Source of the DNA: an uncultured Actinomyces sp.
GTDB lineage: Bacteria > Actinomycetota > Actinomycetes > Actinomycetales > Actinomycetaceae
DNA length: 64,000 bases
Reading direction: 5' to 3'
Assembly: GCA_900545825.1 (NCBI GenBank)
Contig: URAS01000002.1
Span: 91,953 to 155,952 of the forward strand
The notes under the pieces: generated by a model
Told to the model about the DNA's origin: nothing
Database searches by the model: none
The model's input: only the letters and a program-made list of their open reading frames with translations
Position numbers and translations under genes: made by a program
In this document: in pieces, positions 38,711-62,929 of the stretch
Layout of the letters: each line of letters starts with the position of its first letter
Numbering within the stretch: the stretch's first letter is position 1

Positions 38711-39901
38711 TCACAGATCGATCTTCGTCACACGGCCCGAACCGACCGTGCGGCCACCCTCGCGGATAGCGAAGCCGAGGCCGACCTCCATGGCGATCGG
38801 CTGAATGAGCTCAACCGTGATCTCCGTGGTGTCGCCGGGCATAACCATCTGCGTGTCCTCGGGCAGCGTGATAACGCCCGTGACGTCGGTGGTGCGGAAG
38901 TAGAACTGCGGACGGTAGTTCGAGAAGAACGCCTTGTGACGGCCGCCCTCTTCCTTCTTGAGGATGTAGACCTGGCCCTCGAACTTCGTGTGCGTCGTGA
39001 CCGAACCCGGGGCGCAGACAACCTGGCCACGCTCGACCTCTTCGCGCTTGATGCCGCGCAGCAGCAGGCCGGAGTTGTCGCCAGCCTGGCACTCGTCCTG
39101 CGACTTGTGGAAGGTCTCGATGCCGGTGACCGTCGTGTGCTGCGGCTCGCGGATACCGAGGATGTCGACCTCGGAGTTCAGGGCCAGCTTGCCACGCTCG
39201 ATACGGCCGGTGACGACCGTGCCACGACCGGTGATCGTGAAGACGTCCTCGATCGGCATGAGGAACGGCTTGTCGAGGTCGCGCTGCGGCTCCGGGATGT
39301 AGGTGTCGACCGCGTCCATGAGGTCCTCGATCGCCTTCGTCCACTTCGGGTCGCCCTCGAGCGCCTTGAGCGCCGAAACGCGGATAACCGGAGCGTTCTC
39401 GCCGTCGAAGCCCTGGGACGAGAGGAGGTCACGGACCTCTTCCTCGACCAGTTCGAGCATCTCTTCGTCGTCGACCATGTCGGCCTTGTTGAGGGCGACG
39501 AGGATCGCCGGGACGCCCACCTGGCGGGCGAGCAGAACGTGCTCGCGCGTCTGGGCCATCGGGCCGTCGGTGGCGGCGACAACGAGGATCGCGCCGTCCA
39601 TCTGGGCCGCACCGGTGATCATGTTCTTGATGTAGTCGGCGTGGCCGGGGGCGTCAACGTGAGCGTAGTGACGCTTCTCGGTCTCGTACTCGACGTGCGA
39701 AACGTTGATCGTGATGCCACGGTCGCGCTCTTCAGGAGCGTTGTCGACCTGGTCGAACGGGGTGAACTCGTTGAGATCGGGGTACTTGTCGTGAAGCACC
39801 TTGGTGATCGCCGCGGTCAGCGTCGTCTTGCCGTGGTCAACGTGACCGATGGTGCCGACGTTGACGTGCGGCTTGGTGCGTTCAAACTTGGCCTTAGCCA
39901 C
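38711..39901 (-). CDS. tuf: Elongation factor Tu
   Basis: [32 protein letters not shown]... 396 aa. Confidence 0.97.
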
Positions 39902-40035
39902 TGTTGTGTCCTCCTGGACTCGGGTAGTTGTCTCTCGCCTTCAGATCCTAACACCCACTGGCGAGCGATTTCCTACGGGTTTTTGTCTTTCACTTGGGGA
40001 AGAGGGTGAGGTGTGTGTCACCACACCCGTATCAA

Positions 40036-42153
<2,118 letters not shown>

Positions 42154-42198
42154 AAATCGTCCTTAATCTCGAAAGTGGAGAATCGATTTCCGCGACGA

Positions 42199-42669
42199 CT
42201 ACCAGCGGTAGTGCGCGAACGCCTTGTTGGACTCGGCCATCTTGTGCGTGGTCTCGCGACGGCGGACCGCGGCACCCAGGCCGTTGGAGGCATCGAGGAT
42301 CTCGTTCATCAGACGCTCGGTCATCGTCTTCTCGCGGCGCTCGCGCGAGTAGTCGACCAGCCAGCGCAGCGCCAGCGTCGTGGCGCGGGACGGACGAACC
42401 TCAACGGGGATCTGGTAGGTCGCACCACCGACGCGGCGCGAACGCACCTCGAGGGCGGGGCGAATGTTGTCGAGAGCCCGCTTGAGGACGACGACCGGAT
42501 CCTGGTCCGTCTTCTCGCGGACGCCCTCGAGGGCGTTGTAGACGATGCGCTCGGCCAGCGACTTCTTGCCGTCGAGGAGAACGCGGTTGACGAGCTGCGA
42601 GACCAGGGTCGATTCGTAGACCGGGTCGACTGCGAGCGGGCGCTTGGGAGCGGGGCCCTTACGAGGCAT
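42199..42669 (-). CDS. rpsG: 30S ribosomal protein S7
   Basis: [28 protein letters not shown]... Confidence 0.93.
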
Positions 42670-43043
42670 TACTTCTTCTCCTTCTTCGCGCCGTACTTGG
42701 AACGGCCCTGCTGGCGGTCACGCACACCCTGCGTGTCCAGCGAGCCGCGAACGATGTGGAAACGCACACCGGGCAGGTCCTTCACACGACCACCGCGGAC
42801 GAGCACGATCGAGTGCTCCTGGAGGTTGTGGCCCTCGCCGGGAATGTACGCGGTGACCTCGATACCCGAGGACAGACGCACACGCGCGACCTTACGGAGG
42901 GCCGAGTTCGGCTTCTTCGGGGTGGTCGTGTACACGCGCGTGCACACGCCACGACGCTGCGGCGAGCCCTTCAGGGCGCGAGTCTTGGACTTCGCGACCT
43001 TCGAGCTGCGCCCCTTGCGGACGAGCTGCTGAATAGTAGGCAC
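42669..43043 (-). CDS. rpsL: 30S ribosomal protein S12
   Basis: Conserved from (V)[11 protein letters not shown]...[24 protein letters not shown]. The start is called at the GTG at 43043 (124 aa); the ORF track's ATG at 43139 would add an atypical 32-aa extension. Confidence 0.85.
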
Positions 43044-43331
43044 TACTTTTCCGTCTTTCTTTTGACTGCTACCTTCTCGGAACTTTTTGTCCACGCCGAG
43101 CCGATTGGAAGCATTGTGTGGGCCCCTTGAAGCGGGCACACGTCACCGCCAGGGGCCGGCCCGCCTTGAAAAGACGTCCGGAGCTCCGACGGAGGGAGCC
43201 CGCTGCTGCCACCTTGGGCAGCTGAAAAGGGGCCCGCCGACGCGGGCACCGCCGACAACTCTAGGGGGAATGGGCCGGTCGGGTCAATGTGAGGACGCCC
43301 CGGTGTGAGGGGACTCATGTCACACAATCGC

Positions 43332-43400
43332 GAAACGCCCACCCCGTTCGCCATTTCTGCCCGATAACCGGGAATCGATAGCCGATGGGGTGAGCGTTCC
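43332..43400. repeat. Copy C of a ~70-80 bp repeat family bounded by the inverted repeats GAAACGC(Y)CACC ... GGTGAGCGTT(Y)C
   Basis: CGAAACGCCCACC...CATTTCTGCCCGATAACCGGGA...GGGGTGAGCGTTCC. Aligns with copies A and B. Confidence 0.5.
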
Positions 43401-43509
43401 GGGGGTCCGAAGACCCAACACAGGCCAGGGGCGCCAAGGGAATACCGAGATCTCTCGCTCCCTCGTTGGAGGGGATTGTCGCGCCCTCGCCTGCGGTCTG
43501 GGTGGCCTC

Positions 43510-45393
43510 CTAGGCCGGGTAGATCCCCTCGAAGAAGTCGGCGAGCCGCTCGGGTTCACTGAGCGGGACGATCGCCGCGACATACATGTCGGGGCGCACG
43601 GCGATGGCGACGCCGCCGCGGTCGATCTCGCGCTCGGCGAAGATGTCGACGTCCTCGGTAATCCCGAAGACTTTTTCGAGGTTGATGAGCCCCAGCGGCC
43701 CCGTGACCGGCTTAAACAGGTCGGGCACGTCGTTGGGGTCGATGTCGTGGTGATCCTGCTGATAGATGACCTTGACGTCAAAGAGGGCGTCGAGGTCGTC
43801 GCCCTCGCGGCGGGTCGTAAGGATCGGCGAGCGGTCGTTCGACGCCATCCACTCGGCCCACGCGCGCAGCACCGAATCCTTGGCCTCGGCGGGCGCCGAG
43901 TCGGCGAACGCGTAGATCCGCCAGCGCCCGTCGGCCTCGTGGAGATGGCCCAGCTGCTTGGGGTTCGCGTCGCAGCGGCGGCCGACCTCGGCCGACTTGA
44001 AGCGCTTGCCCAGCGGGAAACCCTTGGCGAGGTCGGTCGCCGAGTCGCCGAAGGTGAGGACCGAAGGGCGGTACTGCGTCATGAAGCCGGCCGGGAACTC
44101 CGCGGTCTGGACGTAGAAGTCCTCGATGCTCAAGCCGTCCTCTTCCTTGACCATCATCGACGACCAGCGCGAGTCAAAGTCGATGAGGTCCTGGGCGATC
44201 TGCTGCCGCTCGGCCGTGTAGGTTCCCAGCAGTGAGCCGGGCGCGCGGCCGGTGAGGACATGCCCGAGCTTCCAGCCCAGGTTAAAGGCGTCCTGCATCG
44301 ACACGTTCATCCCCTGCCCCGCCTTCGCCGAGTGCGTGTGGCACGCGTCGCCGGCGATAAAGACGTGCGGGTCGCGGGTGCCGGCCTCCTCGACCGGGAT
44401 CTCGTCGAACCGGTCGGTCACGCGGTGACCCACCTCGTAGACGGACCACCAGGCGACCTCGCGGACGTCGAGCGTGTAAGGCGAGAGGATCGCGTTGGCG
44501 CGGCGGATGATCTCCTCGATCGGGGTCTCGCGCACCTTGTGGTGGTCGGCCTGCGTCTGATCGCCGAGGTCGACGTAGATGCGGGCGAGGTAGCCGCCCT
44601 CGCGGGGAATGTGGAGGATCGAGCCGTGCGTCGACTGGATGATCGCCTTGTTACGAATGTCCGGGAAGTCGGTGTTCGACAGGACGTCCATGACGCCCCA
44701 CGCATGCATCTGTGCCTTGCCCAGGTGGCGGGCACCGATCGCCCGACGCACCCGCGAATGCGCACCATCCCCGCCGAACAGGTACTTCGTCCGCACGGTG
44801 AACTGCTCACCATCGTGGTCGCCACCCACGTGCGCCACCGTCGCCAGCACCGGATACTCGGCGCCCTCGTCAAACTCGAGGTCGACGAACTCGTAGCCGT
44901 AATACGGCTTCAAGCGGGCCGGCGAGTAGCGTTCGGCGCGCTCGCGGAAGTAGTCGAGGATGCGCGCCTGGTTGATGATGAGGTGGGGGAACTCCGAGAT
45001 CCCCATGGGGTCGTCGGGCGTGCGCGTCGTGCGGACGATGTGGTCGGGGTTGTCCGGATCCGGCTTCCAGAAGGACGTCTCGGTGATCCGGTAGGCCTCG
45101 GCTTTGACTTCCTCGGCGAAGCCGAACGCCTGGAACGTCTCGACGCTGCGCTGCTGGACGCCGTCGGCGTGGCCGAGGACCAGACGGCCCTCGCGCTTTT
45201 CAATCATGGCCGTCCGCACCGTCGGGAAGTCCGCCAGCTGCGAGAACATGAGCATTCCCGCGGGGCCGGACCCCACAATGAGGACGTCGAGTTCGGTGGG
45301 CAGGGTGTCGGGGCGTTCCTCGAGGCCGACTCCGGCGGCGGGCTTGACCCGCGGATCCGTCGACACATACCCGTAGTGGTGAAATTGCTGCAT
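43510..45393 (-). CDS. FAD-dependent aromatic ring hydroxylase of the phenol 2-monooxygenase family with a C-terminal thioredoxin-like domain; candidate hydroxyphenylacetate hydroxylase
   Basis: 627 aa with VLIVGSGPAGM (GxGxxG), GDACHTHSAKAGQGMN (the DG/GD motifs of group A flavin monooxygenases) and a ~170-aa C-terminal extension. Confidence 0.7.
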   Translation of the reverse strand: MQQFHHYGYVSTDPRVKPAAGVGLEERPDTLPTELDVLIVGSGPAGMLMFSQLADFPTVRTAMIEKREGRLVLGHADGVQQRSVETFQAFGFAEEVKAEAYRITETSFWKPDPDNPDHIVRTTRTPDDPMGISEFPHLIINQARILDYFRERAERYSPARLKPYYGYEFVDLEFDEGAEYPVLATVAHVGGDHDGEQFTVRTKYLFGGDGAHSRVRRAIGARHLGKAQMHAWGVMDVLSNTDFPDIRNKAIIQSTHGSILHIPREGGYLARIYVDLGDQTQADHHKVRETPIEEIIRRANAILSPYTLDVREVAWWSVYEVGHRVTDRFDEIPVEEAGTRDPHVFIAGDACHTHSAKAGQGMNVSMQDAFNLGWKLGHVLTGRAPGSLLGTYTAERQQIAQDLIDFDSRWSSMMVKEEDGLSIEDFYVQTAEFPAGFMTQYRPSVLTFGDSATDLAKGFPLGKRFKSAEVGRRCDANPKQLGHLHEADGRWRIYAFADSAPAEAKDSVLRAWAEWMASNDRSPILTTRREGDDLDALFDVKVIYQQDHHDIDPNDVPDLFKPVTGPLGLINLEKVFGITEDVDIFAEREIDRGGVAIAVRPDMYVAAIVPLSEPERLADFFEGIYPA

Positions 45394-45561
45394 GGTCGCT
45401 CCTCACAACCTTGTGGGGTGATCTACCAGCACGATCATATATGCTTCCAGATAGGATGCCAAGAGTTTGGGCGACTTTTCCGCAGCCCCTCCCCCGAGAC
45501 GGCGGATCGTGTATGATTTCGGATAGGATTATGTATCCCGTAGCAGACCCAAGGAGGCGTT

Positions 45562-46347
45562 ATGCTCACCGACTCGCAGATCACCCGTATCGCCGATGAC
45601 CTCCTCGAGGCCCATCGCACCCGCACCCCGATCCCCCTGCTCACCAAGCGTTTCGACGGCATGGAGGTCGCCGACTCGTACGCCGTCCAGCGGCTGTGGG
45701 CCCAGCGGACCCGCGACGCCGGGCGCACGCTCGTCGGCCGCAAGATCGGCCTGACGTCGAAGGCCATGCAGGACGCCACGGGCATCACCGAGCCCGACTA
45801 CGGGGTCATTTTCGACGACATGGTCTTCGAGTCGGGCTGCGAGGTCGACTGGGGCCGCTACACCCACCCCCGCATCGAGGTCGAGCTGGCGTTCGTCCTC
45901 GGGAAGGACGTCACCGGGCCCGCGGCGACGGTGTTCGACGTCCTCGACGCGACCGAATGGGTGACGCCGGCGCTCGAGATCCTCGACTCGCGCATCGAGA
46001 TGGAGGGCCGGACGATCGTCGACACGATCGCCGACAACGCGGCGATGGGCGCGATGGTCGTCGGCGGCCGCCCGATGCGGGTCGACCAGCTGGATCTGCG
46101 CTGGGTCGGCGCGATGCTCTACCGCAACCAGACGATCGAGGAGACGGGCGTGGCCGGCGGCGTCCTCGGGCATCCGGCGAACGGCGTCGCGTGGCTGGCG
46201 AACAAGATCGCGCCGCACGGCGACCACCTGCACGCCGGCGAGATCATCCTCGCCGGGTCGTTCACGCGGCCGATGTGGGTCTACGAGGGCGACTCGGTGG
46301 TCGCCGACTACGGGCGAATGGGGACGGTGACATGCCAGTTCAACTGA
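45562..46347 (+). CDS. hpaH: 2-oxo-hept-4-ene-1,7-dioate / 2-keto-4-pentenoate hydratase (MhpD/HpaH family)
   Basis: 261 aa (RBS AAGGAGG) with [14 protein letters not shown] and [12 protein letters not shown] motifs. Confidence 0.8.
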
Positions 46348-47123
46348 GCACTTCTCGCACGCTGATCGCCCACCTGGCCGAGGCGGGGCGCCCGCTGGCC
46401 GGCATGTGGGTGTGTTCGGCCTCGCCGATCGCCGCGGAGATTTGCGCGGGATCCGGCCTCGACTACGTGCTGATCGACGCCGAGCATTCGCCGAATGACC
46501 TCTCGACACTGTTGCCGCAGCTGCACGCGTGCGCGGCGTACCCGGCGACGACGATCGTCAGGGTGCCGTACAACGACGAACGCCTCATCAAGCAGTTCCT
46601 GGACCTCGGTGTCGTTAACCTGTTGGTCCCTATGGTGCACACGGCCGAGCAGGCGCGCGCCGCCGTCGCGCGCGTCACCTATCCGCCGGAGGGCGTGCGC
46701 GGTGTCGGGTCGGCGCTGGCGCGGGCGTCGCGGTGGAATCGCGTGCCGAATTACCTGGCGAGGGCGCGCGAGACGATTTCGCTGATCCTCCAGATCGAGT
46801 CGGGCCAGGCCTGCGAGAACGTCGACGAGATCGCGGCGGTCGAGGGCGTCGACGCCCTCTTCGTGGGGCCGGCGGATTTGGCGGGCGACCTCGGGCTGCT
46901 GGGTCAGGCCGAGGACGAGGCCGTCGTCGAGCGGGTGCTCGCCTGCATCGAGGCGGGCCACCGCGCGGGCAAGCCGGTGGGGACGAACGCGTTTAACCCG
47001 GAGATGGCCAGGCGGTATTTCGAGGCTGGGGCGGACTTCGTCCTCGTGGGGGCGGACGTCACGCTGCTGGCGAGGGCCAGCGAGAAGTTGGCGGACGACT
47101 ACCTGCCGACGCTCGGCGGCTAG
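46332..47123 (+). CDS. hpaI: HpcH/HpaI-family aldolase (4-hydroxy-2-oxoheptanedioate aldolase)
   Basis: 263 aa. The ATG at 46332 overlaps the hydratase gene end by 16 nt. Contains LIDAEHSPND and LQIESGQA. Confidence 0.8.
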   Translation: MPVQLSTSRTLIAHLAEAGRPLAGMWVCSASPIAAEICAGSGLDYVLIDAEHSPNDLSTLLPQLHACAAYPATTIVRVPYNDERLIKQFLDLGVVNLLVPMVHTAEQARAAVARVTYPPEGVRGVGSALARASRWNRVPNYLARARETISLILQIESGQACENVDEIAAVEGVDALFVGPADLAGDLGLLGQAEDEAVVERVLACIEAGHRAGKPVGTNAFNPEMARRYFEAGADFVLVGADVTLLARASEKLADDYLPTLGG

Positions 47124-47139
47124 AGCCGCCCTCTTACGC

Positions 47140-47219
47140 GAAGCGCTCACCTAACGTGTTAAAACTGCCGGATACCGGACAGGATCGACATTTTAGGTGA
47201 GCGTTTCGGTTTTTTCGCG
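47140..47219. repeat. Copy A of the GAAACGCTCACC / GGTGAGCGTTTC repeat family. Here it ends in GGTTTTTT, so it also looks like the intrinsic terminator of the hydratase-aldolase operon
   Basis: GAAGCGCTCACC-TAACGTGTTAAAACTGCCGGATACCGGACAGGATCGACATTTTA-GGTGAGCGTTTC-GGTTTTTTCGCG. Its reverse complement is ~85% identical to copy B. Confidence 0.55.
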
Positions 47220-47223
47220 GAGG

Positions 47224-48657
47224 CTACCGCGGGAGGCCGACGTAGATCGTCTCTTCGAACTCGTCGATGCCCTCGAGGCCACCCTCGCGGCCCAGGCCCG
47301 ACGCTTTGACGCCGCCGAAGGGCGCCGCGGCGTTCGAGATGGTCCCGGAGTTGACGCCGAGCATCCCGACCTCGAGGCGGCGGGCCAGCCGCATGATCCG
47401 GCCGATATCGCGGGTGTGGACGTAGCCGGCGAGGCCGAACTCGGTGTCGTTGGCGTAGCGGACGACCTCGTCCTCGTCGTCGAAGCCGCAGATGGCGGCG
47501 ACGGGGCCGAAGACCTCCTCGCGCATGAGCGGGTTGTCGGGCGCGACGTCGCCGATCACGGTCGGCGGGTAGAAGTAGCCGGCGCCCTCGGGGACCTGGC
47601 CGCCGCAGCGCAGGATGCCGCCCGCGGCGACCGACCGGTCGACGAGGTCGGCGACATGGTCGCGCTGCTTCGCCGAGATAATCGGGCCGACGTCGACGCC
47701 CTCGGCCATCCCGTCGCCGACGGTCATCGCGGCGAACGCGTCGGCCAGGCGCGACGTGAACTCGGCCTGCAGCGACCGGTGGACGTAGAAGCGCGAGGAC
47801 GCGTTGCAGGCCTCGCCCATGTTGCGCATCTTCGTCGCGATCGCGGCGTCGACGGCGAGGGCGAGGTCGGCGTCCTCGAAGACGATAAACGGCGCCAGGC
47901 CGCCCAATTCCATCGAGGTGCGGAGGACGTTTTCGGCGGCCTCGCGCAGCAGGGCCCGCCCGACGCCGGTCGAGCCGGTGAACGAGATCTTCCGCAGCCG
48001 GGGATCGGCGATCATCGGGCCGGTCATCGGCGGCGTGTCCGCGGTCGGGACGACGTTGACGACGCCGGCGGGCAGGCCGATCTGGTCGAACACCTCGGCG
48101 AGCAGGAGCGACGTCAGCGGGGTCGCGTCGGAGGGCTTGAGGACGCACGTGCAGCCGGCCGCGAGCGCCGGCGCGATCTTGCGGGTGGCCATGGCGAGGG
48201 GGAAGTTCCACGGCGTGATGAAGAGGCACGGCCCGACGGGGCGCTTGAGGGTGAGGACGTGGACGCCGCCCTCGGGGGTGGGGTAGCTGGCGCCGTGGGC
48301 GTGGGGCGCGGATTCGGCGAACCAGCGCAAGAATTCGGCGCCGTAGGTGACCTCGGCGTATGCCTGGTCGAGGGGCTTGCCCATCTCGAGGGTCATGCAG
48401 CGGGCGAAGTCGTCGGCGCGGGCGGTGACGGCGTCGAAGGCGCGGGCGAGGTAGTCGGCGCGGACGCGCACGGGGGTCTCGGCCCAGGATTCGGCGGCGC
48501 GGTGGGCGGCGTCGAGGGCGGCCATGCCGTCGGCGGGCGACGCCGAGGCGACCTCGGCGAGGACGTCCTCGGTGGCGGGGTTGACGACGGGGAAGGTCTG
48601 GCCGGTCGCGGACGGCCGCCAGGTGCCGTCGATAAAGAGCGAGGTCGGATAGGACAT
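47224..48657 (-). CDS. NAD(P)+-dependent succinate-semialdehyde dehydrogenase (GabD-like), paralog 1
   Basis: 477 aa from an internal ATG (MSYPTSLFIDGTWRP). Contains MELGGLAP (Glu) and MGEACNASSRF (Cys). The 71-codon upstream extension was rejected. Confidence 0.8.
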   Translation of the reverse strand: MSYPTSLFIDGTWRPSATGQTFPVVNPATEDVLAEVASASPADGMAALDAAHRAAESWAETPVRVRADYLARAFDAVTARADDFARCMTLEMGKPLDQAYAEVTYGAEFLRWFAESAPHAHGASYPTPEGGVHVLTLKRPVGPCLFITPWNFPLAMATRKIAPALAAGCTCVLKPSDATPLTSLLLAEVFDQIGLPAGVVNVVPTADTPPMTGPMIADPRLRKISFTGSTGVGRALLREAAENVLRTSMELGGLAPFIVFEDADLALAVDAAIATKMRNMGEACNASSRFYVHRSLQAEFTSRLADAFAAMTVGDGMAEGVDVGPIISAKQRDHVADLVDRSVAAGGILRCGGQVPEGAGYFYPPTVIGDVAPDNPLMREEVFGPVAAICGFDDEDEVVRYANDTEFGLAGYVHTRDIGRIMRLARRLEVGMLGVNSGTISNAAAPFGGVKASGLGREGGLEGIDEFEETIYVGLPR

Positions 48658-48715
48658 GCGGGGGATCCTTTCGGGCCTGAAGGCTGGGGGGGTCGGCGAC
48701 GGTGCCGAACCTCCC

Positions 48716-48900
48716 ACTAATCGTATATGATTTCCTCGATAACGCGCCAGCCCCCGCGAGCCAACCGCCCCGGCCAGGCCCTTCACGCATCCCGACCACA
48801 CGCAATCCGCCAGAGAGAACTTCGCCGTTCCTCTTGACGCCGCCTGGTCGACCCCGTAGGCTGGAGTCAATCATATACGATTGAATGTATGATTAATCCG
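48716..48900. promoter_or_regulatory. Divergent promoter region carrying the operator-like 12-bp palindromes ATCGTATATGAT (48720-48731) and ATCATATACGAT (48870-48881), plus the half-site GAATGTATGATT
   Basis: AT-rich palindromes in a 70% GC background. The same motif occurs at 45506-45517 and 54102-54113. Confidence 0.5.
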
Positions 48901-48933
48901 AGAGAGACGACGTCGACTCCCACGGGAAGGACT

Positions 48934-50415
48934 GACATGGATCCTGTAACCGCCACCATTGGCCATCGCCCCGGCAAGATTTTCGCCGTTCACCTCTCGT
49001 ACGCCTCGCGCGCCGCGCAGCGCGGCCGCACGCCGGCCAACCCGTCGTACTTCTTTAAGGCGCCCTCGTCGCTGACCGGCTCGGGCACCGTCGCCCGTCC
49101 CGAAGGCTGCGAGCTCGTGGGCTTCGAGGGCGAGGTCGCCGTCGTCATCGGCACGCCCGGGCGCAACATCAGCGTCGAGGACGCGTGGAGCCACGTCGGC
49201 TGGGTGACCGCGGCGAACGACCTCGGCCTCCACGACATGCGGTACGCCGACCGCGGCTCGAACGTCCGCTCGAAGTCGGGCGACGGCTACTCCCCCGTCG
49301 GCCCCACGCTGCTGGATGCGCGTAAACTCGACGAAAAGCGCATCGGCGTCAAGACGTGGCTGGACGGCGCCCTCGTGTCGGACGACAACACGGGCGGGAT
49401 GCTGTTCACGATCTCGACGATGATCGCCGACCTCTCGCGCCTCCTCACCCTGGAGGAGGGCGACATGATCATGACCGGCGTCCCCGCCGGCGCATCGGTC
49501 GCCGAGCCGGGCCAGACGATCGAGGTCGAGGTCTTCAGCCTCGACGATCCCAGCCTGACGACGGGCCGCCTGCGCACCGAGGTCGTCTCCGCTCCCCCGC
49601 TGGCCAAGGTCGGCCACGCCCCGAAGGTCGATGACGCCCAGCGTTCGGACGCGTGGGGCTACCCGATCGGCACGGTCAAGGCCGAGGCCGACCGTCGCGC
49701 CCCGCTGGACCCCGAGGTCCGCCGCCGCCTCGAGAACGTCGGCGTCGGCACCCTGTCGGTGCAGCTGCGCAAGCGCGGCTACAACGAGGCGATCATCGAC
49801 GGCGTCAAGCCGCTCACCCCGGGCACACGCCTTATTGGTCCGGCCCGCACACTGCGCTACGTGCCGTTCCGCAAGGACCTGTTTGCCCAGCTCGGTGGCG
49901 GATTCAACCACCAGAAGCAGGTCGTCGACTCGCTGCGCGAAGGCGACGTCCTCGTCATGGATGCGCGCGGCTGCACCGAGGCCGGCACGCTGGGCGACAT
50001 CCTCGCCCTACGCGCGAAGACGCTGGGAGCGGCGGGCATCGTCACCGACGGCGCGGCCCGCGACTCGGCGGAGGTCGAGCGCGTCGGCCTGCCGGTGTTC
50101 ACGAACGGCCGCCACCCGGCCGTCCTCGGGCGCCGGCACGTGCCGTACGAGCACGACGTGACGATCGCCTGCGGCGGCGCCACGGTATGCGTCGGCGACA
50201 TCATCGTCGGCGACGACGACGGCGCCATCGTCATCCCCCGCGACCTGCTCAACGAGGTCCTCGCCGACGCCGAAGCCCAAGAACACCGCGAGCGCTTTAT
50301 CGCCGAACAGGTCGCGGCCGGCGAGAGCCTCGACGGGCTGTTCCCCGTGGCAAGCGACCACTGGAAGGAACGCTTCGCCGAGTGGGAGAAGGACCACCCC
50401 GCCCCGACTGCGTAA
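48934..50415 (+). CDS. Fusion protein: an N-terminal fumarylacetoacetate-hydrolase (FAH/HpaG-like) domain plus a C-terminal RraA-like (HMG/CHA aldolase / oxaloacetate decarboxylase family) domain
   Basis: 493 aa (RBS GGAAGGA). N-terminal domain: GFEGEVAVVIG...MIMTGVPAG. C-terminal domain: VLVMDARGCTEAGTLGDILALRAKTLGAAGIVTDGAARD. Confidence 0.65.
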   Translation, partial: DMDPVTATIGHRPGKIFAVHLSYASRAAQRGRTPANPSYFFKAPSSLTGSGTVARPEGCELVGFEGEVAVVIGTPGRNISVEDAWSHVGWVTAANDLGLHDMRYADRGSNVRSKSGDGYSPVGPTLLDARKLDEKRIGVKTWLDGALVSDDNTGGMLFTISTMIADLSRLLTLEEGDMIMTGVPAGASVAEPGQTIEVEVFSLDDPSLTTGRLRTEVVSAPPLAKVGHAPKVDDAQRSDAWGYPIGTVKAEADRRAPLDPEVRRRLENVGVGTLSVQLRKRGYNEAIIDGVKPLTPGTRLIGPARTLRYVPFRKDLFAQLGGGFNHQKQVVDSLREGDVLVMDARGCTEAGTLGDILALRAKTLGAAGIVTDGAARDSAEVERVGLPVFTNGRHPAVLGRRHVPYEHDVTIACGGATVCVGDIIVGDDDGAIVIPRDLLNEVLADAEAQEHRERFIAEQVAAGESLDGLFPVASDHWKERFAEWEKDHPAPTA

Positions 50416-50499
50416 CCCCGCAGGCGTCACTCCGCCCGACATCCCGGCGCCCAGCGCCCCGACACTTGTTGATTGTTCCGACTGACTGAAGGAGACCCC

Positions 50500-52032
50500 A
50501 TGACCGACGCAACCGGGTTGTTGCCGGATCACATCCAGCACTACATTGGCGGCCAATTCGTCGATTCGGCCGACGGCGACATGTTCGACGTCCTCGATCC
50601 GACGACGAACGAGGCCTACATCCAGTGCGCCTCCGGGAAGGCCGCCGACGTCGATGCCGCCGTTGCCGCCGCCCGCAAGGCGTTCGACGAGGGCCCGTGG
50701 CCCACGATGCAGCCGCGCGAGCGCGCCCGCATCCTCTACCGGATCGCCGACGAGGTCGAGAAGGTCCACTCCGAGCTGGCGGCGCTGGAGAGCCGCGACT
50801 CGGGTCTGCCGATCCGCCAGGCGAAGGGCCAGGCGAACCGCGCGGCCGAGAATTTCCGGTTCTTCGCCGACCTCATCGTTGCCCAGCGCGACGACACGTA
50901 CAAGATGCCGGGCCGCCAGATTAACTACGTCAACCGCAAGCCGAAGGGCGTCGCGGGCCTCATCACGCCGTGGAACACGCCGTTCATGCAGGAGTCGTGG
51001 AAGCTCGCGCCGGCCCTGGCGTCGGGCTGCACCCTGGTCCTCAAGCCCGCCGAGTTTACGCCCGCGTCGGCGTCGCTGTGGGCGGGCATCATGGAGCGCG
51101 CCGGCGTCCCCGAGGGCGTCTTTAACCTCGTCAACGGCTTCGGCGAGACGGCGGGCGACGCCCTCGTCAAGCACGAGGACGTCAACCTCATCTCGTTCAC
51201 CGGCGAGGCCGGCACGGGCCGCGTGATCTTCGCGAACTGCGCGCCGACGATGAAGGCGATGTCGATGGAGCTGGGCGGCAAGTCCCCGGCCGTCATCTTC
51301 GCCGACGCCGACTTCGAGGCCGCCCTCGACTCGACGTTGTTCGGCGTGTTTTCGCTCAACGGCGAACGCTGCACGGCGTCCTCGCGCATCCTCGTCGAGC
51401 GCCCGATTTACGACCGCTTCGTCGAGGCGTACGCCGAGCGCGCGAAGAAGATCAAGGTCGGCGTCCCGTCGGATCCCGACACCGAGATCGGCGCCCTCGT
51501 CCACCCCGAGCACTACGACAAGGTGACGAGCTACGTCGAGATCGGCAAGAAAGAGGCGCGCCTGGTCGCCGGCGGTGAGCGGCCCGCGGGCTTCGAGAAG
51601 GGCAACTACCTCGAGGCGACGGTGTTCGCCGACGTCGACCGCGACGCGCGGATCTTCCAGGAGGAAATCTTCGGCCCCGTCGTCTGCATCACCCCGTTCG
51701 ACACCGACGAGGAGGCCCTCGAGCTCGCCAACTGCGTCGAGTACGGCCTCGCCGCCTACGTGTGGACGAAGGACGTCACCCGCGCCCACCTGTTCGCGCA
51801 CGGGATCGAGGCCGGCATGGTGTGGGTGAACTCCCACAACGTCCGCGACCTGCGCACCCCGTTCGGTGGGGTCAAGGCCTCCGGCCTCGGCCACGAGGGC
51901 GGCTACCGCTCCCTCGACTTCTATTCCGACCAGCAAGCTATCCACATTCGCCTGGGCGACGTGCACACCACTCGCTTTGGCGCCACCGGTTACGCCGATA
52001 ACGACCTCGGCCTGGGCGGACCTTCCGCGTAA
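50500..52032 (+). CDS. hpaE: 5-carboxymethyl-2-hydroxymuconate semialdehyde dehydrogenase (HpaE / XylG family ALDH)
   Basis: 510 aa (RBS GAAGGAGA) with MELGGKSPAVIF, LNGERCTASSR (Cys) and EEIFGPV. Confidence 0.82.
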   Translation: MTDATGLLPDHIQHYIGGQFVDSADGDMFDVLDPTTNEAYIQCASGKAADVDAAVAAARKAFDEGPWPTMQPRERARILYRIADEVEKVHSELAALESRDSGLPIRQAKGQANRAAENFRFFADLIVAQRDDTYKMPGRQINYVNRKPKGVAGLITPWNTPFMQESWKLAPALASGCTLVLKPAEFTPASASLWAGIMERAGVPEGVFNLVNGFGETAGDALVKHEDVNLISFTGEAGTGRVIFANCAPTMKAMSMELGGKSPAVIFADADFEAALDSTLFGVFSLNGERCTASSRILVERPIYDRFVEAYAERAKKIKVGVPSDPDTEIGALVHPEHYDKVTSYVEIGKKEARLVAGGERPAGFEKGNYLEATVFADVDRDARIFQEEIFGPVVCITPFDTDEEALELANCVEYGLAAYVWTKDVTRAHLFAHGIEAGMVWVNSHNVRDLRTPFGGVKASGLGHEGGYRSLDFYSDQQAIHIRLGDVHTTRFGATGYADNDLGLGGPSA

Positions 52033-52121
52033 CCCCTCCGCGCGGCGTGGGCGGCCCGTCCACGCCGCGGCCTACACAGGCAATGCCCGATTACCGATGT
52101 CACAGCCAAAGGAGACTGATC

Positions 52122-53201
52122 ATGCACGAAATCGATCCCATCGCCACCCCGACCGCGCCTGCCCCGGACATCCTCCGATGCGCCTACATGGAAGTCATCG
52201 TGTCGGACCTTGCACGGTCGCGTGAGTTCTACGTCGACACGCTCGGCCTCGTCGTCACCAAGGAGACCGAGGACGCCCTCTACCTGCGGACCTTCGACGA
52301 GTTCATCCACCACAACCTCGTCCTCCGCGTTGGCCCGACGCCGGCGGTCGCCGCGTTTGCGTTCCGCGTCCGCAGCCCCGAAGAGGTCGACAAGGCCGAG
52401 GCCTACTACAAGGAGCTGGGCTGCCGCACCGAACGGCGCAAGGACGGCTTCGTCGACGGCATCGGCGACGCCGTGCGCGTCGAGGACCCGCTGGGCTTCC
52501 CCTACGAGTTCTTCTTCGAGTGCGAGCACGTGCCGCGCATGTGCTGGGACTACGACAAGCAGTCGGCCGGCGCCCTCGTCCGCCTCGACCACTTCAACCA
52601 GGTGTTCCCCGACGTCGTCAACGGCTCGAAGTACCTGGAAGACCTGGGCTTCAAGCGGACCGAGGACATCAAGGACGACAAGGACGTCACCTACGCCGCG
52701 TGGTTCGCGCGCAAGCACACCGTCCACGACACGGCGCTGACCGGCGGCGACGGCCCGAGGATGCACCACATCGCGTTCGCGACGCACGAGAAGCACAACA
52801 TCCTCTACATTTGCGACAAGCTGGGCGCCCTGCGCCAGTCCGACGCGATCGAGCGCGGCCCGGGGCGTCACGGCGTCTCGAACGCGTTCTACCTGTACCT
52901 GCGCGACCCCGACGGGCACCGCGTCGAAATCTACACGCAGGACTACTACACGGGTGACCCCGACAACCCGACGATCACGTGGGACGTCCACGACAACCAG
53001 CGGCGTGACTGGTGGGGCCACCAGGTCGTCCCGTCGTGGTACCGCGACGCCTCGCTGGTCCTCGACCTCGACGGCAATCCGCAGCCGCTCATCGCCCGCC
53101 AGGAACCGAAGGAGCTGGACGTGACGATCGGCGCCGACGGCTTCTCGTACACCCGCAAGGGCGACGAGGAGAAGGGCTACAAGGTCGGGTCGCAGCTGTA
53201 G
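52122..53201 (+). CDS. hpaD: Homoprotocatechuate (3,4-dihydroxyphenylacetate) 2,3-dioxygenase, a type I extradiol dioxygenase
   Basis: 359 aa (RBS AAAGGAGA). Two VOC modules with His/Glu metal ligands (HHIAF...; E in DPDGHRVEIY). Confidence 0.8.
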   Translation: MHEIDPIATPTAPAPDILRCAYMEVIVSDLARSREFYVDTLGLVVTKETEDALYLRTFDEFIHHNLVLRVGPTPAVAAFAFRVRSPEEVDKAEAYYKELGCRTERRKDGFVDGIGDAVRVEDPLGFPYEFFFECEHVPRMCWDYDKQSAGALVRLDHFNQVFPDVVNGSKYLEDLGFKRTEDIKDDKDVTYAAWFARKHTVHDTALTGGDGPRMHHIAFATHEKHNILYICDKLGALRQSDAIERGPGRHGVSNAFYLYLRDPDGHRVEIYTQDYYTGDPDNPTITWDVHDNQRRDWWGHQVVPSWYRDASLVLDLDGNPQPLIARQEPKELDVTIGADGFSYTRKGDEEKGYKVGSQL

Positions 53202-53303
53202 ACCAGCCCACGTTGTGGCACCCGGGCGGCGGCGGCCGGTCCCCATCCCGTTATGCTGGGACCGGCGCCGCTACCGGGCGGCGTCGCGATCAAGGAGGCT
53301 GAG

Positions 53304-53960
53304 ATGGCCGAGGGCATGTCCAAGTCGGAACGCGTCTACATGAAGCTGCGCGAGGGGATCCTCCAGGGCAAATACACGCCCGGCTACCGTTTCGTCCTCG
53401 ACCGGATCGCCCGCGAGGAGGGCGTGTCGCCCGTACCCGTACGCGAGGCCGTGCGACTCCTCGAGGCCGAAGGGCTCGTCACGTTCCAACGCAACGTCGG
53501 CGCCGTCGTCTCGGCGATCGACAAGCACGTCTACGCCGAAACGATGGAGACCGTCGCCGTCCTCGAGGGCTATGCCACCGCGCTGGCCGCGGCACACATC
53601 ACCGAGGACGACCTCGCCGAAGCCCAGAACGTCAACGACCGGATGCGGCATCGGCTGACCTCGGCGTTTGACCCGCGCGAGGTGACGCTCCTCAACAAGC
53701 AGTTCCACCGGATCATTACCTCGGCGTGTCCCAACCAGCGCATGCTCGACATCCTCGAGCGTGAATGGGACCGCATCACCTTTATTCGACGCAGCCAGTT
53801 TGCGTTCGACCCCGTCCACTCGATCCGTTCCGTCGACGAGCACGACGCCATCATCCAGGCGATGCGCGAGCGCGACGCCGACCAGATCGAGCAGCTGGCC
53901 CGGCAGCACAAAATGCGGACGCTGCGCCAGTACCTGGCCACCGACCACTCCCAGGCGTAA
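53304..53960 (+). CDS. GntR-family transcriptional regulator (FadR/FCD subfamily), the likely regulator of the cluster
   Basis: 218 aa (RBS AAGGAGG). N-terminal winged helix-turn-helix (RIAREEGVSPVPVREAVRLLE) plus an FCD domain. Confidence 0.8.
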   Translation: MAEGMSKSERVYMKLREGILQGKYTPGYRFVLDRIAREEGVSPVPVREAVRLLEAEGLVTFQRNVGAVVSAIDKHVYAETMETVAVLEGYATALAAAHITEDDLAEAQNVNDRMRHRLTSAFDPREVTLLNKQFHRIITSACPNQRMLDILEREWDRITFIRRSQFAFDPVHSIRSVDEHDAIIQAMRERDADQIEQLARQHKMRTLRQYLATDHSQA

Positions 53961-54072
53961 CCGCCGGCGTCACCCCCTGCGTCACCCCGGCAGGCGGGCG
54001 GTCGGTCGCGGCGATGCCCTGCGCGGCGCTGTTGTCGCGCGCGAGGGCGCCGCGGTTTTTCCTCGTTATCTC

Positions 54073-54150
54073 TTGACACCGTGGCGTACGTCACGGTTAT
54101 AATCGTATACGATCGCGTTTATGGTCGCATATGTGACTCACGTTCACCGC
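54073..54150 (+). promoter_or_regulatory. Near-consensus promoter of the MFS gene (TTGACA at 54073-54078, 19 nt, TATAAT at 54098-54103) overlapped by three operator-like palindromes
   Basis: CCGTGGCGTACGTCACGG sits between the -35 and -10 boxes. ATCGTATACGAT (54102-54113) overlaps the -10. CTCACGTTCAC (54138-54148) matches the GTCACGTTCAC motif of the 60-63 kb inverted repeats. Confidence 0.5.
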
Positions 54151-54161
54151 TGATAGGAGCC

Positions 54162-55604
54162 ACCATGACCCACCAGTCGACCCCCTCCCCCGCCAGCTCC
54201 CAGCTGGTCCTTAACCCCCACAACCGTGAAGACCGCAGAGTCGCGGTCGCCACCCTCGTCGGCACGACCGTCGAGTGGTACGACTTCTTCATCTACTCCA
54301 ACGCCGTCGCCCTCGTGTTCGGTCCCCTGTTCTTCGAGCCGCTGGCCAAGGAAAACACCGTGCTGGCCCAGCTCATCGGGTTCGCGACCGTGGGCATCAG
54401 CTTCTTCTTCCGCCCGCTGGGCGCCATGGTCGCCGGCCACCTGGGCGACAAGATCGGCCGCAAGGCGATGATGGTGGCGACGCTGCTGCTCATGGGTGGC
54501 GCGACCGTCCTCGTCGGCTGCCTGCCGACGTACGCGTCGATCGGGATGGCCGCGCCGTTCCTCCTCATCGCCCTCCGTATCCTCCAGGGCTTCGCGGCCG
54601 GCGGCGAGTGGGGCGGCGCCGCCCTCATGGCGGTCGAGCACGCGCCGGCGAAGCGCCGCGGCTGGTTCGGCGGGTTCCCGCAGGTCGGCGTGCCTCTGGG
54701 CATGCTGACGGCGACGGCGGTCCTCGCGATCGTCCACGTCATCTCGCGCGACCAGTTCACGACGTGGGGCTGGCGGATCCCGTTCCTCCTGTCGGTCGTC
54801 CTCATCATCGTCGGCATGCTCATCCGCCTCAAGGTGTCGGAATCGCCGATCTTCGAGGAGGTCCGCAACGAGGAAGACCAGCTGCGCCTGCCGATCGTCC
54901 AGCTGTTCCGGTTCAACGGCAAGCAGGTCGTCCTCGGCGCCCTCGCGTTCATGGGCAACGGCGTCGCCGGATACATGGTGACCGGCGGCTACATCCTCGC
55001 CTACACGTCCGGGCCCGGCGGCCTGGGGGTCAGCGCCGAGCACATGCTCACGCTCATCACGATCGCGTCGGCGCTGTGGGTCTGCTCGACCCTGTTCGCC
55101 GCGTGGATTTCCGACCGGATCGGGCGCGTGCGGACGTTCCAGATCGGCTTCGTCCTCCAGCTGCTGTGGGTGTTCCCCCTGTTCATGTTCGTTGACCGCG
55201 GCCAGATCGGCCTCATCGCCCTCGGCATGCTGCCGCTGACGCTGGGCCTGGGCCTGACCTACGGCCCGCAGTCGGCGATGTTCGCCGAGATGTTCCCGGC
55301 CCGCGTCCGCTACTCCGGCGCCGGCATGGCGTACGCGATCGGCGCGATCCTCGGTGGCGCGTTCGCGCCGATGATCGCCACGTGGCTGAGGGCGACGTTC
55401 CACACGTCGATGGCGGTGTCGACCTACCTGTTCATCTTCACGGCGATCGGCATGGTCGGCGTGTCCCTGATCAAGGACCGGACGGGCAAGCCGCTGGGCC
55501 GCGACGCGAACGACATCCCCGGCAACGCCGAGCTCGAGGCGGCCGTCACGGCGCACTCGGTCTCCGGTACGAAGGCGACGTTCGAGCGCGGCGCCGGCTG
55601 GTAA
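54162..55604 (+). CDS. MFS transporter of the metabolite:H+ symporter family; probable aromatic acid permease
   Basis: 480 aa with 12 TM segments, the signature GHLGDKIGRK and GGEWGGAALMAVEHAP. Confidence 0.8.
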   Translation, partial: TMTHQSTPSPASSQLVLNPHNREDRRVAVATLVGTTVEWYDFFIYSNAVALVFGPLFFEPLAKENTVLAQLIGFATVGISFFFRPLGAMVAGHLGDKIGRKAMMVATLLLMGGATVLVGCLPTYASIGMAAPFLLIALRILQGFAAGGEWGGAALMAVEHAPAKRRGWFGGFPQVGVPLGMLTATAVLAIVHVISRDQFTTWGWRIPFLLSVVLIIVGMLIRLKVSESPIFEEVRNEEDQLRLPIVQLFRFNGKQVVLGALAFMGNGVAGYMVTGGYILAYTSGPGGLGVSAEHMLTLITIASALWVCSTLFAAWISDRIGRVRTFQIGFVLQLLWVFPLFMFVDRGQIGLIALGMLPLTLGLGLTYGPQSAMFAEMFPARVRYSGAGMAYAIGAILGGAFAPMIATWLRATFHTSMAVSTYLFIFTAIGMVGVSLIKDRTGKPLGRDANDIPGNAELEAAVTAHSVSGTKATFERGAGW

Positions 55605-62812: not shown

Positions 62813-62929
62813 GGTTTCGCTCCTTCGCGATCGGTCGGCCCCCGCACACGCGCCAGGGCCGGCGGAATTGTCCGTTTTTCTCAGCCTAACGCCGGGGCCC
62901 AACTTCGGCACCCGCAGGCGCTACCCCCA

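Follow-up and report, generated by a model that had tools for sequence, protein, structure and literature searches.

The window, by which we mean the whole stretch of 64,000 nucleotides of uncultured Actinomyces DNA that was analysed, encodes a protein in which a fumarylacetoacetate-hydrolase (FAH) domain is fused to an RraA-like domain. We judge the chances to be even that this fusion is the actinobacterial counterpart of HpaG/HpcE, with an FAH half that would act as OPET decarboxylase and an RraA-like half that would fill the role of the second FAH domain, namely isomerisation. Architecture, conservation, catalytic residues, gene context and a shared operator were observed directly, and from them we infer the reaction of each domain.

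An intact fusion gene

The fusion is encoded by a single open reading frame on the plus strand (48889–50415), within which the ATG at 48937 is the likely start; the resulting length of 492 aa is also that of a protein from an independent assembly, identical at 100%, and of the orthologue in Nanchangia anserum. The earlier note had described a 493-aa ORF starting at 48934. The joining of the two domains in one intact frame is real and Pfam finds both, but that start lies one codon 5' of the ATG. Residue and domain numbers (aa 16–217, E65 and so on) are counted here from 48934.

48937–50415, plus strand: coding sequence of the FAH-RraA fusion, the putative actinobacterial HpaG equivalent (492 aa plus stop)
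48979–49584, plus strand: FAA_hydrolase domain (aa 16–217; Pfam 2.3e-43)
49585–49698, plus strand: inter-domain segment, its C-terminal part a variable-length linker
49699–50394, plus strand: long RraA-like/HMG-CHA-aldolase-like domain (aa 256–487; Pfam aa 278–433)

A frameshift at the junction (~49.6 kb), which the earlier note had raised, was not found: GC3 is uniform in a single frame (0.93 in the FAH part, 0.93 in the linker and 0.90 in the RraA part), no stop codon interrupts the fusion frame between 49500 and 49900, and 118 homologues are colinear across the junction, where only the short linker differs in length, with insertions that reach about 45 aa. The probability that two genes were falsely joined by an assembly or sequencing frameshift is thus negligible, since it is refuted by this even coding signal, the colinear homologues, the at least 583 species genomes that encode the same fusion and the identical protein in the independent assembly. 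In the AF2 model, pLDDT is lowest in the inter-domain segment (block means of 67–87 around aa 230–260), and the monomer has a pTM of 0.59, at which the inter-domain geometry is not reliable.

A widespread actinobacterial family

Proteins of the NCBIfam equivalog NF009399/PRK12764 are about 470–545 aa long, score above the cut-off over their full length and have a colinear FAA_hydrolase/RraA-like layout. The fusion has this layout and length and scores 693.1 bits (cut-off 444) over profile positions 13–497 of 501. The earlier note had called the fusion unusual, a description that does not hold: it is the normal form in Actinomycetota, all 80 loci returned belong to this phylum, and the hpaG label is already used for it in genome papers and JGI pipelines. 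The gene is ordinary and already catalogued, and its product would be the standard mid-pathway homoprotocatechuate enzyme of hundreds of Actinobacteria. The earlier note had said that its reading would fall if the fusion were widespread and already characterised; the first part is borne out and the second is not, since our literature search found no enzymology or characterisation of any family member.

Two observations speak against the HpaG/HpcE assignment. Close orthologues of the fusion in Georgenia sit outside any hpa cluster. Moreover, among four short contigs that carry stand-alone halves, one of metagenomic origin has an FAH gene without the RraA part directly 5' of an HpaE-like gene; it shares 54% identity with the N-terminal half of the fusion and hints that the pathway may sometimes work with an RraA domain that is separate, or with none. 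Divergent fusions (33–41% identity) occur in non-hpa gene contexts.

Gene cluster and shared operator-like box

The cluster in the window spans 43.5–55.6 kb and comprises, besides the fusion, the following genes.

43510–45393, minus strand: single-component FAD phenol-2-monooxygenase-type hydroxylase (NF006144, 916 bits; Pfam FAD_binding_3 and Phe_hydrox_dim), presumed to be the hydroxyphenylacetate hydroxylase
45562–46347, plus strand: HpaH, OHED hydratase (TIGR02312, 359 bits; cut-off 351.5)
46344–47123, plus strand: HpaI-type class II aldolase (Pfam HpcH_HpaI, 2e-47; TIGR02311, 297 bits, below the cut-off of 369)
47224–48657, minus strand: succinate-semialdehyde-dehydrogenase-like ALDH, divergent from the fusion (TIGR01780, 501 bits, below cut-off; start placed after an orthologue, the Nanchangia orthologue having 478 aa)
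50473–52032, plus strand: HpaE, CHMS dehydrogenase (TIGR02299, 652 bits; cut-off 638)
52047–53201, plus strand: HpaD, type I extradiol homoprotocatechuate 2,3-dioxygenase (TIGR02295, 411 bits; cut-off 321)
53253–53960, plus strand: GntR/FCD-family regulator of the cluster (Pfam GntR and FCD)
54081–55604, plus strand: MFS metabolite/H+ symporter

The HpaI gene is hidden within a longer spurious ORF. The GntR/FCD regulator has homologues in 64 of the 80 related loci, and a palindromic box, ATCRTATAYGAT, occurs in five copies in the window, at cluster promoters only.

45434–45517: two copies of the box, each with a single mismatch, in the divergent promoter of hydroxylase and HpaH
48720–48731: operator-like palindrome ATCGTATATGAT, in the divergent promoter of SSADH and fusion
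48870–48881: operator-like palindrome ATCATATACGAT, 56 bp 5' of the fusion ATG
54102–54113: fifth copy, exact, at the GntR/MFS junction

The exact box of 48870–48881 is also found in 35 related loci, and in most of these it stands 20–140 bp ahead of the fusion gene. This shared element suggests that the fusion is co-regulated with the cluster, which we count in favour of its being the HpaG/HpcE counterpart.

A proposed place for the fusion in the pathway

Among 80 species-level loci, the fusion is accompanied by HpaE in 74 and by HpaD in 71; HpaH and HpaI are found in 35 and a DapA-like aldolase in 37, never both. As expected of an HpaG/HpcE, it is encoded with hpaD, hpaE and hpaH/hpaI in the window. 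A second HpaG-type FAH ORF was found neither in the cluster of the window nor, across the 80 loci, in the 10 kb on either side of the fusion, and single-sequence searches of limited sensitivity (tblastn and phmmer, with 1OTG, 4JCU and XylH as queries) revealed no HpaF/CHMI or 4-OT homologue in the window or in 91 loci. The fusion itself lacks a tautomerase-superfamily (HpaF/CHMI) domain, and gaps of at least 330 bp without an assigned gene occur within the core clusters of only two of the 80 loci. The earlier note's reading that the cluster lacks both HpaF and a second HpaG-type FAH domain therefore stands for the window, whose cluster is gap-free and otherwise complete. HpaH and its paralogue at 60410–61195 are only distant members of PF01557; the paralogue was considered as a XylI-like decarboxylase and set aside, since it is not a conserved neighbour of the fusion at other loci.

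With HpaF and the second HpaG-type FAH domain missing from the cluster, the fusion is the only candidate for the steps from CHM to OHED. HpaD and HpaE would make the tricarboxylate CHM/OPET, which the fusion would take to the dicarboxylate HHDD/OHED; HpaH plus HpaI, or the DapA-like aldolase, would then convert this dicarboxylate to pyruvate and succinic semialdehyde. HpaF could also be encoded away from the cluster in these genomes: it has been claimed elsewhere in the genome for C. aurimucosum (cauri_0890). Physiology speaks for the assignment: 4-HPA and homoprotocatechuate both support growth of Arthrobacter sp. Rue61a, which has an hpcH-hpcG-hpcB-hpcC...hpaG cluster for which no hpcD/hpaF is listed.

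Two other placements of the RraA half in the pathway were rejected. It does not stand in for a missing HpaI, which is present at 46344–47123, an aldolase accompanying the fusion in 72 of the 80 loci. Nor does a hydratase function in DapA-type clusters offer a general role, since in 35 loci an orthologous fusion occurs alongside HpaH, and the similarity among fusions does not follow cluster type.

The FAH half resembles the decarboxylase domain of HpcE

Canonical HpaG is a tandem of two FAH domains, as the earlier note correctly stated; the fusion has one, where an HpaG/HpcE would have two, in tandem or separate, and it falls below the HpaG equivalog cut-offs (TIGR02303, 124 bits vs 276; TIGR02305, 73 vs 229; NF011750, 109 vs 811). 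In HpcE, OPET decarboxylase is assigned to the C-terminal and HHDD isomerase to the N-terminal domain, and the split of decarboxylation and isomerisation between the HpaG halves is still called ambiguous (J Biol Chem 2025, PMC12718150). The FAH half scores 114 bits against the C-terminal domain of HpcE and 44 bits against the N-terminal one, and the same order is seen with the C-terminal (TIGR02303) and N-terminal (TIGR02305) models.

49126–49134 and 49219–49221, plus strand: FAH metal triad E65, E67 and D96, invariant in 118 sequences

These three residues align with the 'YEAEL...NDYAIRD' motif of the HpcE C-terminal domain, whereas the N-terminal domain of HpcE is without an E-x-E...D triad. 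Of the two domains of E. coli HpcE, it is clearly the metal-binding one, with OPET-decarboxylase activity, that the FAH half of the fusion most resembles in sequence, and this half would be an Mg2+/Mn2+-dependent OPET decarboxylase.

The RraA-like half keeps an enolate site

The RraA-like half matches Pfam PF03737 over aa 278–433 (2.7e-32) and passes the cut-off of NF006093/PRK08245 (224 bits; cut-off 208). Foldseek gives it TM-scores of 0.88–0.93 to 3K4I and 5X15, that to 5X15 being 0.93.

49993–49998, plus strand: G354-D355, aligned to G101-D102 of 3NOJ
50059–50064, plus strand: R376-D377, aligned to R123-D124 of 3NOJ

In 3NOJ, R123 is the essential enolate-stabilising Arg and D124 the metal-binding Asp (PMC5065237). 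Among the 118 sequences, R376, D377, G354 and D355 are invariant, E450 is 100% conserved and E453 at least 90%; E453 aligns approximately with E199 of 3NOJ, the alignment of the C-terminal helix being itself approximate. A basic loop, HPAVLGRRH, is conserved in the fusion family and stands in place of residues 138–156 of 3NOJ. The half thus has what defines the HMG/CHA aldolases, that is, the RraA-like alpha-beta-beta-alpha fold with Arg-Asp/Gly-Asp and Glu residues. It does not reach the equivalog cut-offs of LigK/PcmE (TIGR02798, 72 bits vs 304; NF006731, 81 vs 179) or of RraA (NF006875, 51 vs 136; TIGR02998, 24 vs 241).

HMG/CHA aldolase catalyses exchange of the methyl protons of pyruvate, that is, enolisation of a 2-oxo acid. 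The sequence evidence leans towards an isomerase, or a partner of the FAH decarboxylase, as the function of the RraA half. With its HMG/CHA-aldolase fold and intact Arg-Asp metal/enolate site, it would stand for the metal-less FAH domain of HpcE as HHDD isomerase and activating partner; it probably performs keto-enol isomerisation of 2-hydroxy-dienoates (HHDD to OHED) and possibly also converts CHM to OPET, the HpaF step. In its boldest form, which we advance tentatively and hold for less probable than the HpaG/HpcE assignment as such, the RraA-like domain would be an undescribed metal-dependent keto-enol isomerase of 2-hydroxymuconate-type dienols that non-homologously replaces both HpaF and the second FAH domain, and in Actinobacteria one polypeptide would take CHM via OPET and HHDD to OHED, in three steps.

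Since the FAH and RraA-like folds both include oxaloacetate decarboxylases, the roles of the two domains could be swapped. The FAH domain would then be the isomerase, and the RraA-like domain would decarboxylate OPET, a vinylogous beta-keto acid, much as HMG/CHA aldolases decarboxylate oxaloacetate. RraA-fold enzymes decarboxylate oxaloacetate (as the PDB name of 3NOJ has it), FlDet, also of the RraA fold, is a KDGR dehydratase/decarboxylase, and the catalytic Arg-Asp pair is invariant; the closeness of the FAH half to the HpcE C-terminal domain, which is the OPET decarboxylase, and its retained metal triad make this exchange unlikely.

Similarly improbable is that the RraA-like domain serves mainly as a structural, oligomerising or activating partner of the FAH decarboxylase, mimicking the effect of HHDDI on OPETD and contributing no pathway chemistry. 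FAH proteins are generally dimeric. RraA-like proteins are typically oligomeric, with hexamers reported for Vibrio RraA (PMC5738090), and joining an oligomeric RraA to a dimeric FAH could build a defined higher oligomer. Moreover, the A. baumannii decarboxylase requires a complex with its partner, for which the authors suspect a structural role, while the CHM isomerase merely accelerates the reaction (PMC12718150). The invariant residues, however, are those of the catalytic and metal site (R376, D377, G354, D355), and the HPAVLGRRH loop is conserved too, which is unexpected for a scaffold.

The earlier note had also proposed an added oxaloacetate or 4-hydroxy-2-oxo-acid branch. In fold and catalytic residues the RraA-like half does match the class II pyruvate aldolases. 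That it has an independent side activity as pyruvate aldolase or oxaloacetate decarboxylase is nonetheless very unlikely, because the window and 72 of the 80 loci have a separate gene for the pathway aldolase (HpaI 35, DapA-like 37), no pathway step produces oxaloacetate, and the LigK/PcmE models score far below their cut-offs. Regulation of RNase E/ES in the manner of RraA and RraAS2 is scarcely credible, even though the closest solved structure (5X15) is that of RraAS2, a described RNase ES inhibitor: the domain has a catabolic enzyme as its fusion partner, belongs to a substrate-specific operon, has the catalytic Arg-Asp pair and falls far below the RraA equivalog cut-off, and RraAS2 orthologues themselves lie in a conserved sugar-acid-type operon.

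Discussion

If the fusion is the HpaG/HpcE counterpart, Actinobacteria offer a natural experiment on HpaG, in which one FAH domain was kept while an unrelated fold that binds 2-oxo acids took the place of the other, and no HpaF lies close by; the fusion and its separated halves could reveal which activities are really required. A first reaction could be assigned to a family found in at least 583 species. This would help to annotate how tyrosine, tyramine and hydroxyphenylacetate are broken down by Actinobacteria of soils and hosts, among them Arthrobacter, Amycolatopsis, Trueperella, Schaalia and Corynebacterium. Were the RraA-like domain a dienol isomerase, this would be a new reaction class for the RraA/HMG-CHA-aldolase fold and would suggest that many 'RraA-like' proteins, RraAS2 included, are 2-oxo-acid enzymes.

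Comparison with known systems

The closest system is NF009399 (PRK12764, 'fumarylacetoacetate hydrolase family protein'), of which the window protein is a member; the two share their two-domain architecture without structural difference, and the family name is generic, with no assigned reaction. The closest solved relative of the C-terminal half, RraAS2 of S. coelicolor (128 bits), has the same N- and C-terminal extensions and is about 35% identical, but it stands alone, with about 270 aa, has been described as inhibiting RNase ES and is the product of a sugar-acid-type operon. HMG/CHA aldolase-oxaloacetate decarboxylase (P. putida F1, 3NOJ; LigK/PcmE/GalC) is more distant, at 55 bits to 3NOJ, and differs in that the pathway of the fusion has its own separate aldolase. 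HpaF/HpcD, the CHM isomerase of the tautomerase superfamily (1OTG), has no sequence or fold relation to the RraA half, which might catalyse the same CHM to OPET reaction if it is a tautomerase. Finally, HpcE/HpaG of E. coli (PDB 1I7O/1GTT) shares with the fusion its pathway position and gene neighbourhood, and its metal-binding C-terminal decarboxylase domain is homologous to the FAH half, which keeps the E-x-E...D triad; the fusion has a single FAH domain, lacks the metal-less N-terminal one (HHDDI) and carries the unrelated RraA-like domain C-terminally. HpaG1/HpaG2 (OPETD/HHDDI) of A. baumannii, the split version of HpaG, occupies this same position in the pathway.

The FAH-RraA fusion is an intact gene

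On the + strand of the window, an uninterrupted ORF (48889..50415) joins an FAA_hydrolase (FAH) domain (aa 16-217, Pfam, 2.3e-43) to an RraA-like domain (aa 278-433, Pfam, 2.7e-32), as the earlier note had stated. The start proposed there, 48934, lies one codon upstream of ATG 48937, which is the probable start and gives a protein of 492 aa; residue numbers are counted here from 48934, and Met-based numbers are lower by one. Firstly, the frame contains no stop codon between 49500 and 49900, and GC3 is even across the FAH part (0.93), the linker (0.93) and the RraA part (0.90). Secondly, P0001, a protein from an independent assembly, has the same length and sequence, and the Nanchangia anserum orthologue is 492 aa long too (81% identity). 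Thirdly, 118 homologues span the junction colinearly, with length variation confined to a short stretch around aa 243-256 (inserts up to about 45 aa). Finally, in the AlphaFold2 model (mean pLDDT 91.8) both domains are well folded and the linker has lower confidence; how the domains lie relative to each other is not fixed by the model (pTM 0.59). Foldseek matched the N-half to HpcE and other FAH structures and the C-half to RraAS2 (5X15, TM 0.93) and 3K4I, and no solved chain among the matches covers both halves. Taken together, the ORF, coding signal, homologues and model exclude a frameshift at the junction, a possibility that the earlier note had asked to be checked. The fusion is real, and that it is an artefact is barely conceivable.

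The fusion probably fills a gap in the hpa pathway

The gene lies in a compact hpa cluster that has no space for a further gene.

Genes of the hpa cluster in the window
43510-45393, − strand: FAD phenol-2-monooxygenase-type hydroxylase
45562-46347, + strand: HpaH
46344-47123, + strand: HpaI
47224-48657, − strand: SSADH-like ALDH
48937-50415, + strand: FAH-RraA fusion
50473-52032, + strand: HpaE
52047-53201, + strand: HpaD, type I extradiol
53253-53960, + strand: GntR/FCD regulator
54081-55604, + strand: MFS transporter

Every step from hydroxyphenylacetate to succinate and pyruvate has a candidate gene, except the conversion of CHM via OPET and HHDD to OHED. No CHMI or 4-OT homologue was found anywhere in the 64-kb window, which bears out the reported lack of HpaF, and the fusion is the sole candidate for these steps.

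In contrast to the two-component HpaBC of E. coli, the hydroxylase is a flavoprotein of the single-component phenol-2-monooxygenase type. In a plain list of ORFs the HpaI gene is hidden as the tail of a spurious high-GC ORF of 475 aa (45696-47123, +) that overlaps hpaH in another frame, which probably explains the earlier note's silence on the aldolase. The cluster is inserted directly upstream of the rpsL-rpsG-fusA-tuf operon (window 38711-55604), with identical synteny in N. anserum (locus L086); the window derives from a near relative of Nanchangia (Actinomycetaceae). An in-frame TAG (…VPNDMW*VMPSH…) divides an ALDH gene between tuf and rpsJ (36990-38543, −) into two ORFs, 206 and 309 aa long; either the gene is a pseudogene or the stop stems from a sequencing error. 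Some 10 kb away from the cluster, a second SSADH-like ALDH (61349-62911, −) adjoins a second HpaH/MhpD-like hydratase/decarboxylase paralogue (60410-61195, +; TIGR02312, 238 bits, below cut-off); other loci do not share this pair in the vicinity of the fusion.

The genomic context of the fusion is conserved

With the window proteins as phmmer queries, we annotated 80 species-level loci within ±10 kb of the fusion. HpaE was present in 74/80, HpaD in 71/80 and the GntR/FCD regulator in 64/80; loci lacking HpaE or HpaD are mostly truncated contigs. Neither an HpaF homologue nor an additional HpaG-type FAH ORF was detected by phmmer within this distance in any of the 80 loci. Unassigned gaps of at least 330 bp inside core clusters occur only in two loci (L005 and L006). 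The downstream half of the pathway exists in two mutually exclusive versions (L002-L083): HpaH and HpaI without a DapA-like gene (35 loci), or a single DapA/DHDPS-family gene without HpaH/HpaI (37 loci). Both types together were never found, and 8 loci have neither. The DapA-like gene matches TIGR02313 ('HpaI-NOT-DapA') best, with a score below cut-off, and the lack of a nearby HpaH in DapA-type loci suggests a class I hydratase-aldolase.

The window has five copies (1.4 expected) of a 12-bp, AT-rich palindrome, ATCRTATAYGAT, all in the three promoter regions of the hpa cluster (45434-45445, 45506-45517, 48720-48731, 48870-48881 and 54102-54113). The exact box is found in 35 related loci (within L004-L086) from many actinobacterial genera; in most of them it lies 20-140 bp upstream of the fusion gene and is matched nowhere else in about 21 kb. 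It probably serves the conserved GntR/FCD regulator as operator. The 80-locus context and the shared box thus indicate an ancient and tight tie of the fusion to the homoprotocatechuate meta-cleavage genes and their regulator.

Exceptions exist (L088 906-1933; L087 3558-4289; L090 1778-3085; L091 10001-11389; L001 and L009). Georgenia orthologues lie outside hpa clusters, and FAH-RraA fusions that have diverged further (33-41% identity) lie in non-hpa contexts. The halves are also found apart, on short contigs: a stand-alone 243-aa RraA-like protein (62% identity to the C-half) lacks hpa neighbours, and a 255-aa FAH protein (L088; 54% identity to the N-half) is followed directly by an HpaE-like gene.

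The fusion belongs to a widespread family

Over its full length, the protein fits the curated NCBIfam equivalog NF009399 (PRK12764; 693 bits, cut-off 444), whose only name is the generic 'fumarylacetoacetate hydrolase family protein'. Its best 120 matches among 5.8 billion proteins all contain both Pfam domains (439-544 aa), and their named sources are all Actinomycetota. With one genome scanned per species, at least 583 genomes encode a full-length relative; the 80 loci among the matches listed include Arthrobacter, Amycolatopsis, Microbacterium, Streptomyces, Actinomadura, Nocardiopsis, Trueperella, Schaalia and Kocuria. JGI pipelines already label it OPET decarboxylase/HHDD isomerase. The Arthrobacter sp. 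Rue61a genome paper gives ARUE_c40620 as hpaG; its position and gene order are those of the fusion in Arthrobacter/Paenarthrobacter loci, making it a candidate fusion by position. A paper on C. aurimucosum reports an hpaGLEDHI cluster whose genes follow the same order, and an RraA-like half is mentioned in neither publication. The architecture is thus the norm for the phylum, and the description of the fusion as unusual does not hold: sequence and architecture are catalogued and widespread.

Both halves retain predicted catalytic residues

The FAH half resembles the C-terminal domain of E. coli HpcE (114 bits) far more than the N-terminal domain (44 bits), as with TIGR02303 (HpaG C-terminal, 124 bits) and TIGR02305 (N-terminal, 73 bits), both below cut-offs. 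Its E-x-E...D metal triad (E65, E67, D96) is invariant in 118 sequences, whereas G-A-T replaces E-x-E in the HpcE N-domain. A study of A. baumannii (J Biol Chem 2025, PMC12718150) assigns OPET decarboxylase to the HpcE C-domain and HHDD isomerase to the N-domain. It also shows that CHM isomerase speeds the reaction but is not essential.

The C-half scores 224 bits (cut-off 208) with NF006093/PRK08245, the long RraA-like group, and its closest solved relative is RraAS2. R376-D377 align with R123-D124 of the HMG/CHA aldolase 3NOJ, the essential enolate-stabilising Arg and the metal-binding Asp (PMC5065237), G354-D355 with G101-D102 and, approximately, E453 with E199. In 118 sequences the first four never vary, and E453 reaches at least 90% conservation. 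A basic loop, HPAVLGRRH (aa 394-402), is invariant as well; RraAS2 and 3NOJ both differ there, and the loop would suit a polyanionic tri- or di-acid substrate. RraAS2 orthologues (L084 6001-6819; L085 6001-6792) lie in a conserved operon (GntR, sugar ABC transporter, DUF8034, RraA-like, aldo-keto reductase, (SDR), Amidohydro_2) that looks like a sugar-acid catabolic type and hints at an enzymatic role for these orthologues.

A possible division of labour

The fusion stands in HpaG's place in the pathway, and with high probability the whole protein is an HpaG-equivalent that takes CHM/OPET to HHDD/OHED. Tentatively, at somewhat under even chances, we infer that the FAH domain would decarboxylate OPET, while the RraA-like domain would grip the 2-oxo or 2-hydroxy-dienoate end via Mg2+, Asp and Arg and carry out the keto-enol isomerisation(s). 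It would replace the metal-less FAH partner of canonical HpaG, perhaps also HpaF.

RraA-like folds support pyruvate aldol cleavage, oxaloacetate decarboxylation, pyruvate enolisation (methyl-proton exchange) and KDGR dehydration/decarboxylation. Swapped domain roles are unlikely, the FAH half being closest to the HpcE decarboxylase domain. Equally unlikely is a purely structural or activating RraA domain: the A. baumannii decarboxylase, nearly inactive without its partner (PMC12718150), speaks for it, and the conserved putative catalytic residues speak against it. An independent aldolase or oxaloacetate-decarboxylase branch, which the earlier note had entertained, is less probable still, since the window and 72/80 loci encode a dedicated aldolase and oxaloacetate is not formed in the pathway. 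S. coelicolor RraAS2 (PDB 5X15) is a reported RNase ES inhibitor, but that the RraA half regulates an RNase is most improbable. The earlier note was right in its observation and only partly in its interpretation.

FAH proteins are generally dimers. With RraA-like proteins reported as oligomers (hexamers in the case of Vibrio RraA, PMC5738090), a defined higher oligomer of the fusion is, speculatively, plausible.

Comparison with known systems

The working of the two HpcE domains is described as still ambiguous (PMC12718150), and the fusion offers a testable handle on the open question of how the homoprotocatechuate mid-pathway works. We found no characterisation of it in the literature. With a single FAH domain and scores below cut-offs, it is excluded from HpaG/HpcE sensu stricto; its scores likewise exclude it from the LigK-type HMG/CHA aldolases and from RraA, and it has no relation to HpaF. 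By sequence it is a member of NF009399/PRK12764, an ordinary gene for its phylum; at the enzyme level it represents an undescribed variant of the HpaG step, whose novelty is limited to the function of the second domain.
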